Part shown: positions 9,577-13,455 of the stretch, piece after piece
How the letters are laid out: each line of letters opens with the position of its first letter
How positions within the stretch are numbered: the first letter of the stretch is position 1
Origin: a virus
Length of the DNA: 13,892 nt
Direction: 5' to 3' (one strand)
UHGV virus genome: UHGV-0110421
Position numbers and translations under genes: made by a program
Notes under the pieces: model-generated
Told to the model about the DNA's origin: nothing
What the model saw: the letters and a program-made list of their open reading frames with translations, nothing else
Database searches by the model: none

Positions 9577-9663
9577 ATTTATGTTCTCCCTTCGAGCGAC
9601 TAACAGACGCGATTAAAGATTGTCGGCAGCAGCATCAGAGGGTTACGCAAATTGCGGTATTCT

Positions 9664-9690
9664 GAAAAATGCGCGCCAGCCTTAAGCGCA
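9664..9690 (-). terminator. putative intrinsic terminator downstream of dinI
   Basis: GC-rich 5-bp stem (UGCGC / GCGCA) with an 11-nt loop, followed by UUUUUC on the minus-strand RNA, just 3' of the dinI stop. Confidence 0.35.
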
Positions 9691-9693
9691 ATT

Positions 9694-9927
9694 CTAATAA
9701 AACCAGTCGTCAGCGCTTTCCCAGGTATCCTGGAGGATTGATTCAATTTTCTTTTTATCGTCCTTGTCACCACCAAAAACACTTAACCCATCGGCCCCGG
9801 CACGGCGGATTGTGAGCCTGCAATTGTCATAGTGATCATTCAGGCGCTTAAGCAGTTCTTTCTCCAGTGCTGGTACTGCGCCTTTAGGAAGTTCTTTCAT
9901 GCGATCAATGGTTAATTCAACTTTCAT
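9694..9927 (-). CDS. dinI: DinI-like DNA-damage-inducible protein
   Basis: MKVELTIDRMKELPKGAVPALEKELLKRL...SILQDTWESADDWFY matches the DinI family pattern (C-terminal ETWESADDWF motif). Start at the second ATG (9927), which has a GGGG Shine-Dalgarno-like motif. Confidence 0.8.
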   Translation of the reverse strand: MKVELTIDRMKELPKGAVPALEKELLKRLNDHYDNCRLTIRRAGADGLSVFGGDKDDKKKIESILQDTWESADDWFY

Positions 9928-9945
9928 AATGGCCCCCATTGCATT

Positions 9946-9965
9946 TACTGTGTTTTTATACAGTA
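9946..9965. promoter_or_regulatory. LexA (SOS) box overlapping the dinI promoter
   Basis: TACTGTGTTTTTATACAGTA fits the CTGT-N8-ACAG SOS-box consensus with TA flanks. It overlaps a TATACT -10-like hexamer on the minus strand ~20 nt upstream of dinI. Confidence 0.7.
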
Positions 9966-10027
9966 TACCTATGCGCGGAAATGATCAACGCTTTAAGAGC
10001 ACAAATTGTTAATTTTCTGTCAGTAGT

Positions 10028-10056
10028 AAAAAAAAAAACCCCGCCGTAGCGGGTTG
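10028..10056 (-). terminator. intrinsic terminator
   Basis: Minus-strand RNA CCCGC-UACG-GCGGG followed by a run of 11 U (plus strand shows an A11 run then the stem). Separates the moron cassette from the dinI promoter. Confidence 0.6.
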
Positions 10057-10087
10057 AATTAGCGATGTTTTATTACGCCGCTATTTG

Positions 10088-10137
10088 TTTCTGCTGACAA
10101 AGCTCCTGTAGGTTAGCCCTAACCAGCGCCTCAGCGA
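10088..10137. repeat. direct repeat copy A (~50 bp, duplicate of methyltransferase 3' end)
   Basis: TTTCTGCTGACAAAGCTCC... aligns to 10676-10725 with about 6 mismatches over ~47 bp. Both copies would encode ...AEALVRANL(Q/P)ELCQQK(Q/E)IAA-stop on the minus strand. Confidence 0.6.
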
Positions 10138-10279
10138 GCTGATGATTGGACAGCATTAACGCAATGGGTAATAGAAACCACAGAATGCACGAAATGGCGG
10201 TGGTATTCGCCATCTGTGACAGGTTGAATATTGCTCGAATTGTATTGTTTGCACTTTAACGTTTCTGTTGTAGTGCCGG

Positions 10280-10316
10280 ATGCATGCCACCGTATGTTCA
10301 GGACGATGGCATGCAT
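10280..10316. repeat. perfect 10-bp inverted repeat (ATGCATGCCA ... TGGCATGCAT) with 17-bp spacer
   Basis: Seen directly in the sequence, immediately 3' of the 78-aa moron ORF on the minus strand. No adjacent U-run. Confidence 0.6.
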
Positions 10317-10324
10317 ATTATGGA

Positions 10325-10561
10325 TTACGATTTATCCATTCCCAGGGGATTAGGGTGAATTCCACTTACATGCCAGAACGCATGCTCTCTATTCAACTGA
10401 TTTCCCTTTGGTATCAGGAAGCCATACGTCCCAGATTTAAAAGTGGCATGAGCGCAGATTAGACTTTCTCCTTCAAAGCTATACTCAGTCCCTTCAGGGA
10501 TTAGAGAGTCAGTCTTGATCAGGTGAACAGTTCCGTTGATAGGGATCATGTAATGGTGCAT
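10325..10561 (-). CDS. uncharacterised moron protein (78 aa, His-rich, soluble)
   Basis: ATG at 10561 with GAGGAG upstream and its own extended -10 promoter. AT-rich segment. No family recognised. Confidence 0.5.
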   Translation of the reverse strand: MHHYMIPINGTVHLIKTDSLIPEGTEYSFEGESLICAHATFKSGTYGFLIPKGNQLNREHAFWHVSGIHPNPLGMDKS

Positions 10562-10599
10562 TTTAGGCTCCTCGTGTTGTGAAGAGCCTAATTATATCA
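10562..10599 (-). promoter_or_regulatory. extended -10 promoter (TGATATAAT) plus 5'-leader hairpin that pairs with the Shine-Dalgarno sequence of the 78-aa ORF
   Basis: Minus strand reads CTGATATAATT AGGCUCUUC-ACAACAC-GAGGAGCCU AAA AUG. The 9-bp stem (one G-U pair) includes the whole GAGGAG motif. Confidence 0.45.
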
Positions 10600-10660
10600 G
10601 GTTTGAATCTACGTCATTGAAGTAGCAGGATTTGTTACACCATGTTCTGAAACTCGGACA

Positions 10661-10901
10661 TTAAGCTGCGATCTCTTTCTGCTGACAAAGCTCCGGTAAA
10701 TTAGCCCTCACCAGTGCCTCGGCGAATGGCGGCGGAACTGCGTTGCCACAACGCGCAACCTGCTTGTCCTTCGCGTACTTCTGCCCCCGATAGTCCTGAT
10801 CGATGATGTACCACTCCGGGAAGCCCTGCCAGTTTGGCGTTGTTCAACCCTGGGTTGTTGCGCAGGGCTGCCAGCACCTGCTCACGGATTGTTATGTTCA
10901 T
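10661..10901 (-). pseudogene. DNA cytosine-5 methyltransferase, C-terminal remnant (truncated and frameshifted)
   Basis: Minus-strand frame ending at 10661 encodes ...WQGFPEWY...ARCGNAVPPPFAEAL..., which matches C5-methyltransferase C-terminal motifs (FP-x-Y and GNAV). That frame has a stop at 10844-10846 and no start; a different frame opens at ATG 10901 just after the P stop. Confidence 0.55.
10676..10725. repeat. direct repeat copy B (native 3' end of the methyltransferase remnant)
   Basis: Partner of 10088-10137; see that feature. Confidence 0.6.
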
Positions 10902-10902
10902 G

Positions 10903-11592
10903 TCACACCATCCCGTTCGACTTGTTGCGGTTGTACTTGGCCAGCAGCAGCTGGATCGGCGTCGGCCCTTGCTCGGCAGCTGGTGCGGCAATAGCCCGGC
11001 GTACCGGCGGCACTGGCTTACCCTCGGTGACGCGCCTTTCCCACATGTCCAGCAGATCGCCTGCCTCGCGTGCCAGTTCACCATGCGTTAACTGGCGCTC
11101 GGTGCTGCGGTGGCGCAATTCTACGCAAATGTGGTACATGACCGGCTGCGACCATGGAAATTGCTCGCTGGAGATGAATTCGAACGAGCGGTTACGCCAG
11201 TCCCAGTATTCGGCGATCACCTGGTCAACGTTGACGCCCAGCGCGCCGCCGCTCTGCTTGCACCAGGCGACGAACTGGCCCGGCGACGGCAGGAATGGGC
11301 GCTCCTGGCGGCGGGCAATGCGCATGCCGGCATCGACCTGAGCCATGGTGTGGATCCCGTTCTCCTGAAACGCCAGCAGCCACTGACGGCGGAATTCGTT
11401 CAGGTCTTCCTGGGTGCGGAAGTTCGCCATGCTGGCCGGGAACGCGGCGCGCAGCTCGTTGAACAGCTTGTTGAATACCTGCGCCACCTGCTCGACCGGC
11501 GCGCACTCCTGGTACTGCTCTGGCAGGTTATGGGCCATGCGGCTCATCTGCTCGCGGTCGTGGTTACGCATCTGCTCTGCAAGAGATTTCAT
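10903..11592 (-). CDS. P: replication protein P (DnaB helicase loader)
   Basis: Strong resemblance throughout to lambda P as remembered (e.g. NLPEQY, FPASMANF, RQWLLAFQENGIHTMAQVDAGMRIARRQERPFLPSPGQFVAWC). ATG overlaps the O stop (ATGA). Confidence 0.9.
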   Translation of the reverse strand: MKSLAEQMRNHDREQMSRMAHNLPEQYQECAPVEQVAQVFNKLFNELRAAFPASMANFRTQEDLNEFRRQWLLAFQENGIHTMAQVDAGMRIARRQERPFLPSPGQFVAWCKQSGGALGVNVDQVIAEYWDWRNRSFEFISSEQFPWSQPVMYHICVELRHRSTERQLTHGELAREAGDLLDMWERRVTEGKPVPPVRRAIAAPAAEQGPTPIQLLLAKYNRNKSNGMV

Positions 11593-13351: not shown

Positions 13352-13455
13352 CGTTGTCTCCGATTTGAATACAATCAAATTAAGCCTGAGACTTAATTTA
13401 TTGTCAAGCCTGAGGCGAATTTTCAAGTTTAAGAAAAAGGCTTATTCTTCTAACC
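13352..13455. promoter_or_regulatory. immunity-region intergenic: divergent promoters and operator-like repeats
   Basis: An 8-bp inverted repeat AAATTAAG-N7-CTTAATTT (~13377-13399), direct repeats of AAGCCTGAG (~13382 and ~13406), and a TTGACA on the minus strand (~13401-13406) oriented toward the Cro-like gene. Confidence 0.45.

Follow-up and report, generated by a model that had tools for sequence, protein, structure and literature searches.

In 1985, Davis, Simons and Kleckner reportedly described 'fold-back inhibition' in IS10 and IS50, by which translation of transposase from outside transcripts is inhibited. Only RNA started outside these elements holds the sequence that pairs with the ribosome-binding site (RBS); their own promoter starts downstream of that sequence. 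RNA thermometers (ROSE, fourU) are marginally stable, mismatched structures that melt between 30 and 42 °C. In phage T4, the long RNAs made from upstream promoters have the Shine-Dalgarno sequence (SD)/AUG of genes e, soc, 49, and I-TevI buried in a helix, and a promoter near the RBS starts inside the helix and gives transcripts that are translated well (PMC3014915). In IS200, a cis stem-loop in the 5′ UTR of tnpA itself sequesters the SD (PMC4513863).

We analyzed a hairpin over the RBS of a 78-aa open reading frame (ORF) in a 13,892-nt stretch of viral DNA (UHGV-0110421), referred to in its full length as the window. The hairpin resembles the T4 gene e type in that a helix would bury the SD in long RNA and the predicted transcription start lies within the helix. 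The T4 genes have gp55-dependent late promoters (TATAAATA), and the switch between early and late lytic phases was shown experimentally; here, by contrast, a sigma-70 extended −10 promoter in a temperate-phage moron would, by prediction only, serve a presumed distinction between lysogen (own promoter) and early read-through. As in IS10/IS50, a mobile module would shield its own gene from external read-through. In contrast to those elements, the cargo is a small protein rather than a transposase, and no antisense RNA partner is evident. On balance, we favor with modest confidence the view that the hairpin is a promoter-embedded 'fold-back' insulator in the style of T4 gene e and IS10.

Judged by its sequence, the site belongs to an mEp237-like lambdoid prophage. 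The 551 bases around it had 99.8% identity to lambdoid phage mEp237, and of 5426 complete E. coli genomes some 30 carried a prophage with 100% identity. The 78-aa gene was present in 39 of the 5426 E. coli genomes, and mEp237 was its sole carrier among 50,697 phage records. No relative was found on plasmids, or in protein-profile and promoter-pattern searches of genome contigs. The ORF (positions 10325–10561, minus strand; AUG 10561–10559, stop 10327–10325) is a homolog of mEp237_047, on which literature searches revealed no paper, and falls in PHROG 30079 (annotated 'unknown function'). An exhaustive HMMER search of 1.8 billion representatives detected a handful of relatives of 75–78 aa with 39–43% identity in gap-free alignment; motifs MHHY..P, LIK, IPEG, C.H, GTYGYL, and HPNPL were conserved in the family. 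Relative to these proteins, 67–68 of the 78 codons differed, and third-position changes were ~2-fold more frequent than first/second-position changes. The 78-aa ORF is a real gene.

The AlphaFold (AF2) model of the 78-aa protein (pLDDT 80.5) had five strands and one helix, and fold searches with it gave no significant structural neighbor; there was no Pfam or PADLOC match. The first-pass annotation of this DNA had suggested a toxic or defense-type product. This suggestion received no support, because Pfam, PADLOC, PHROG 30079, and fold searches showed no similarity to toxins or anti-phage defense in sequence or fold. The NCBI RefSeq pipeline left the ORF uncalled in E. coli AR_0118, with an annotation gap from 9927 to 10701; the homolog is called in E. 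coli H6 and mEp237. A 142-aa predicted protein (P0003) consisted of the C-terminal 60 residues of the 78-aa protein and an unrelated N-terminus, and is probably a recombinant or a mis-called ORF.

The minus strand reads 5′ to 3′ across the site as ATGACG-tagattcaaacc-TGaTATAAT-T-AGGCTCTTC-ACAACAC-GAGGAGCCT-AAA-ATG CAC CAT TAC. The extended −10 element TGATATAAT (10591–10599, minus strand; hexamer 10596–10591) was invariant in all relatives sharing the upstream sequence. Its consensus TGNTATAAT had a single copy in the window, at 10599–10591, vs. 0.17 expected. A −35-like hexamer ATGACG (TTGACG in one relative) is located at 10612–10617 (minus strand), with a 15-nt spacer. The promoter feature entered by the mEp237 depositors in GenBank maps to window positions 10617–10591. 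This promoter was not listed by a simple promoter scan; its −35 is weak and its spacer is 15 nt. The scan found no other promoter-like site within 9900–11000, and none on the opposite strand, hence the lack of an evident antisense RNA partner. E. coli RNA polymerase starts 6, 7, 8, and 9 bp past the −10 element in 8, 55, 29, and 7% of cases, respectively, and rarely elsewhere (PMC5730371). By this distance rule, the predicted transcription start zone is therefore 10582–10585 (minus strand; positions 6–9 past −10, modal position 7 = C10584), midway along the hairpin's 5′ arm.

The 5′ arm (anti-SD) UUAGGCUCUUC (10581–10591, minus strand) has as its first base the last T of the −10 hexamer. It is followed by the A/C-rich loop ACAACAC (10574–10580, minus strand, by RNAfold), identical in locus L033 despite ~52% coding identity to the window, and by the 3′ arm GAGGAGCCUAA (10563–10573, minus strand), which contains the SD GAGGAG (10573–10568). 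Spacing from GAGGAG to the AUG is 6 nt. The first-pass annotation correctly noted a 9-bp stem with one G-U pair that includes GAGGAG; in RNAfold this stem extended to 11 bp. The folding energy, proposed there as a check, was −16.4 kcal/mol and thus not near zero: dinucleotide-shuffled controls had a mean of −6.5 kcal/mol (z −4.5), and none of 200 matched the stability of the hairpin. The stable helix that sequesters the SD is probably a translational control element.

The window contained three uninterrupted hairpins of at least 11 bp, where Markov simulations predicted 0.29; the 78-aa ORF is flanked by two of them. A 14-bp hairpin with one G-U pair and a 9-nt loop (10280–10316, minus strand) begins 9 nt past the stop of the ORF and has no U tract. 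It was partly retained in close relatives, with one-sided changes and some decay, and is possibly a 3′ stabilizer. A scan of 9600–11000 against Rfam 15 gave no match at 10540–10620 even at E ≤ 10; the only three matches in the scanned region were weak, and all fell at the terminator, 10026–10146.

Because the 5′ arm shares its first base with the end of the −10 hexamer and the predicted +1 lies farther downstream, the stem should not be part of the leader made from the gene's own promoter. The placement of the stem within the predicted leader, as in the first-pass annotation, was accordingly not borne out, since the arm begins upstream of any plausible start. By this geometry, the 11-bp hairpin would form only in transcripts entering from upstream. 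RNA begun at 10585–10582 retained 2–5 of the 11 arm bases and folded at 0 to −1.7 kcal/mol. Opening of the ribosome site (−15 to +12) cost 2.5–4 kcal/mol in RNAs starting from positions 6–10, vs. 14–22 kcal/mol in read-through RNA. In four other leader variants, the cost was roughly 5–16 kcal/mol for read-through vs. 2.5–4 kcal/mol for short RNA; in short transcripts of the E. coli H6 (L002) type, some alternative SD pairing remained. In the folding model, the probability that GGAG is unpaired was ~0 in read-through contexts. The read-through opening energy of the 78-aa gene ranked third among 22 window genes, so that this measure alone does not single it out; the other window genes with high opening energy were GC-rich and mostly translationally coupled. 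The helix, its stability, its position relative to the −10 element, and the opening-energy difference were all computed, as was the recurrence of the layout described below.

In lambdoid phages, the antiterminated pR transcript crosses this stretch. The 78-aa gene is co-oriented with O, P, and a methylase remnant, and the terminator scan found no terminator-like site between the upstream ORF and the hairpin. In the mechanism that we propose, the gene's own sigma-70 extended −10 promoter would start inside the 5′ arm, and its mRNA would have an unstructured A/C-rich leader of ~23 nt with GAGGAG free, and would be translated. In a lysogen, where early promoters are repressed, this promoter would be the only source of RNA for the moron. 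Upstream transcripts, i.e., N-antiterminated pR early RNA passing through O, P, and the methylase remnant, would carry the whole 5′ arm; such read-through RNA would fold the 11-bp helix over the SD, and the 78-aa gene would be translationally silent. We infer that the promoter is active and starts at this position, that read-through RNA is made, and that translation is affected.

Leaders of the gene family were gathered from viral, metagenomic, and assembly collections. Seven distinct leaders were obtained, and a metagenome scan revealed no further leader types. The 30 viral contigs with the 26-nt promoter pattern were also the ones encoding the 78-aa gene. A search of viral contigs with TGATATAATNNNNCTCCAAT returned 52 stretches, nearly all of them chance matches without a hairpin; only two known leaders among them were real. 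Besides the window type, the seven leaders comprised one with a 1-nt deletion after −10, one in which an uncompensated G>T change in the 5′ arm broke a G-C pair, two (from E. coli H6 and Citrobacter) whose stems had 6 bp and whose loops were longer, one with an internal G·G mismatch (L033/L084), and that of L074, whose upstream region is not homologous but likewise carries an extended −10 element, TGGTATAAT. From −10 hexamer to AUG (for L074, from the TG just before the hexamer), all seven folded at −8.9 to −16.4 kcal/mol (P ≤ 0.02 vs. shuffles); RNA from position 7 folded at 0 to −2.3 kcal/mol in all seven. In L074, the −10 region paired with the start-codon region (z −1.8, dinucleotide shuffles). 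Stem strength differed about twofold among relatives, and loops were 7, 10, or 11 nt. The leader was well conserved, and the promoter showed 2 changes in 27 nt (about 93% identity) between lineages with ~51% coding identity; the regulatory module is therefore more tightly constrained than the protein. Within the family (six or seven leaders), no pair had changed on both sides, and pairing was no better than in column shuffles, so that the stem draws no support from classical covariation.

We surveyed other small genes in lambdoid loci collected around the 78-aa gene, by scanning for exact TATAAT 15–45 nt upstream of an ATG-initiated ORF of at least 45 codons. In this small survey, whose loci share one phage group and are not independent, 13 of 16 distinct leaders had a hairpin whose 5′ arm began within the −10 hexamer or directly downstream of it and whose 3′ arm was the SD or AUG. 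Such hairpins were found at a homolog of DNA polymerase III theta (L002 3393–3430; −14.0 kcal/mol, z −4.5), a 60-aa ORF (ORF60; L075 3435–3469; −15.6 kcal/mol, z −4.1, followed by the U run UUUUU), a lipoprotein-like 86-aa ORF (ORF86; L022 3489–3524; −17.2 kcal/mol, z −5.6), and an 81-aa ORF (ORF81) behind another TGATATAAT (L028 2448–2485; −21.0 kcal/mol, z −8.5). A 62-aa ORF (L036 6940–6972) was a weak case without significance, and theta of L080 was likewise a weak example. ORF83 of L037 was dropped as an example; it is a Cro/YdaS-like gene at an early promoter, where palindromes may be operators. The layout of TATAAT, anti-SD, SD, and AUG is thus seen at a minimum of four further small nin-region genes of related prophages. 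In L022, L028, and L074, the hairpin arm takes in the −10 hexamer itself, which by definition is missing from RNA of the own promoter.

The arm pairs varied by gene: AGGCTCTTC/GAGGAGCCT, CCTTCTCAA/TTGAGGGGG, CCCCTC/GAGGGG, CCCTTTC/GAGAGGG, and GAGACTCCA/TGGAGTCTC. The 5′ and 3′ halves of the same leader paired at a mean of −13.8 kcal/mol, vs. −7.0 kcal/mol for chimeras. Pairing as good as that with the own partner was reached in 1 of 20,000 permutations, and in 3 of 720 when one leader per family was used (six families). This fit to the own partner amounts to covariation between analogous modules, and is our main reason to consider an explanation at the RNA level more likely than chance. In the literature searched, no description of such hairpins in morons was found.

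In mEp237, mEp237_047 is located in the nin region, between the replication genes and Q, right after a truncated C5 cytosine methylase. GC content in the window drops from ~0.60 in the replication genes to ~0.43 across the cassette, and a strong intrinsic terminator, CCCGCTACGGCGGG followed by a T run (10029–10053, minus strand; terminator scan), closes the unit. The cassette is bracketed by a 66-nt direct repeat with 83% identity, formed by two copies of the methylase 3′ end. The upstream copy (10660–10725, minus strand) is the 3′ end of the truncated C5 DNA-methyltransferase remnant (stop 10661), as annotated in mEp237, and the downstream copy (10072–10137, minus strand) closes the cassette. 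In both E. coli H6 and L074, an intact methylase (about 660 aa) immediately precedes the homologous gene. The repeat suggests recombination between methylase-bearing phages. In L033 (2940–3240) and L084 (1230–1530), the promoter-hairpin-gene cassette adjoins xis/int instead of lying in the nin region. In both loci, homology to the window sets in precisely with the −35 hexamer, and the gene is followed by a terminator; these boundaries define a mobile unit. No regulator gene accompanies the cassette. The unit had been labeled a moron in the first-pass annotation, and this label agrees with the predicted promoter, the downstream terminator, the GC drop, and the changed genomic positions of the module, which support a candidate moron.

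Three other features of the window were observed. A DinI-family gene (9694–9927, minus strand) past the cassette terminator has upstream a perfect LexA box TACTGTATAAAAACACAGTA at 9946–9965 (0.01 expected), and looks like a second, SOS-regulated moron. At 10701–10901 (minus strand), an annotated 66-aa 'hypothetical protein' after replication gene P apparently runs out of frame into the methylase remnant, whose GNAVPP motif is read in a different frame that ends at 10661; this ORF is probably no gene but a scar left by a deletion. Two copies of CTCAGGCTT and one of its near reverse complement AAGCCT lie at 13380–13440 (minus strand) between divergent cI-like and cro-like genes; these repeats are probably immunity operators. 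Their likeness to the hairpin arms (AGGCT) is a chance-level 5-mer and gave no support to an operator at the hairpin.

The first-pass annotation suggested that the hairpin lies in the leader of the gene's own mRNA and blocks its translation until a signal (temperature, an sRNA or protein, or coupling) unlocks it. This is the type of element seen in IS200 tnpA, which likewise has its SD in a cis stem-loop and is a precedent for such a lock in a gene's own 5′ UTR (PMC4513863). A strong helix does cover the SD of the 78-aa gene, and if the predicted promoter were inactive, the hairpin would be present on every transcript. However, this reading requires either a start within 1–2 nt of −10 or an unrecognized upstream promoter with TGATATAAT inactive; the 5′ arm begins within a perfect extended −10 element conserved in all relatives, and no other promoter-like site was found in 9900–11000. 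In contrast to tnpA, the 5′ arm overlaps the −10 element and the predicted start and should be absent from the own transcript, and the arms at related morons even contain the −10 hexamer. Unlocking by temperature was contradicted by the temperature-dependent folding model, in which the probability that GGAG is unpaired was ≤0.001 at 20–50 °C and 0.019 at 80 °C. An RNA thermometer has in common with this site a hairpin that occludes the SD; however, the 11-bp helix remained closed up to 80 °C in the model, had no Rfam match, and is therefore no thermometer. Thus, sequestration of the SD by a stable helix was upheld, whereas a default-off own leader awaiting a signal conflicts with the start geometry, and we consider it improbable. 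It is equally improbable, in our judgment, that the hairpin lacks a function and merely results from a strong SD together with a G-rich discriminator beside the −10 element, its persistence being due to close relatedness or a recombination joint. Such an origin would fit the absence of compensatory changes within the family and the variant with an uncompensated mismatch, and promoter function could account for the conservation of the 5′ core GGCTC. It accords poorly with the z-score of −4.5 and the failure of all 200 shuffles to fold as well, with the recurrence of the layout at unrelated genes with other arms whose own partners pair better, and with the analogous pairing in the non-homologous L074 leader.

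The statistics of arm-to-arm complementarity would have the same outcome for a DNA palindrome and cannot by themselves separate DNA from RNA, so an operator was also considered, i.e., an inverted repeat bound by a dimeric repressor and overlapping the promoter from −7 to +22. The palindrome indeed overlaps the core promoter, GGCTC-N13-GAGCC is single-copy within the window, and a similar palindrome occurs at the cro-like gene of one related locus, where operators are expected. Nevertheless, the 3′ arm is always the SD or AUG across unrelated cargo genes with differing arms, which would demand many different repressors all recognizing RBS sequences, and no regulator gene travels with the cassette. 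Several stems have G-U pairs, which are tolerated in RNA and are mismatches in DNA symmetry, and half-site spacing varies with the loop size. An operator is thus a poor candidate. A further explanation is that the hairpin is a transcript-end element of the upstream unit (degenerate terminator, pause site, or 3′ stabilizer) that overlaps the next RBS by chance; it would then insulate the gene via transcription or RNA decay, not via translation. The hairpin of ORF60 in L075, with its UUUUU, looks like a true terminator, and the 78-aa unit of L002 has a terminator that directly adjoins the following TATAAT. In the window, however, the stem is followed by AAAAUG without a U tract, and the site was absent from the terminator scan output, by which an intrinsic terminator was rejected. 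The U tract is missing in most other examples too, and N-antiterminated early transcription would ignore a weak terminator. We regard a transcript-end element as unlikely.

The principle of the promoter-embedded fold-back insulator is known from T4 and IS10, and the value of the present case lies in its new context and apparent recurrence. For annotation, a real 78-aa gene is flagged that is uncalled by the RefSeq pipeline in some genomes. If the insulator model is true, the gene has a built-in device that selects which transcripts are translated, and its expression would be independent of strong early transcription during lytic growth. The model would explain the lysogen-specific expression level of morons inside antiterminated operons, and TATAAT abutting an anti-SD arm would be a search signature for genes expressed from repressed prophages. 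We propose more tentatively, and with some doubt, that morons of lambdoid prophages generally carry promoter-embedded anti-SD hairpins, following a design rule not yet described. Under such a rule, the −10 hexamer and the next bases would be kept complementary to the gene's own RBS/AUG. The cargo would be translated only from its own promoter, in the lysogen, and would be invisible on antiterminated early/late read-through RNA; promoter, hairpin leader, and gene would travel as one portable cassette.
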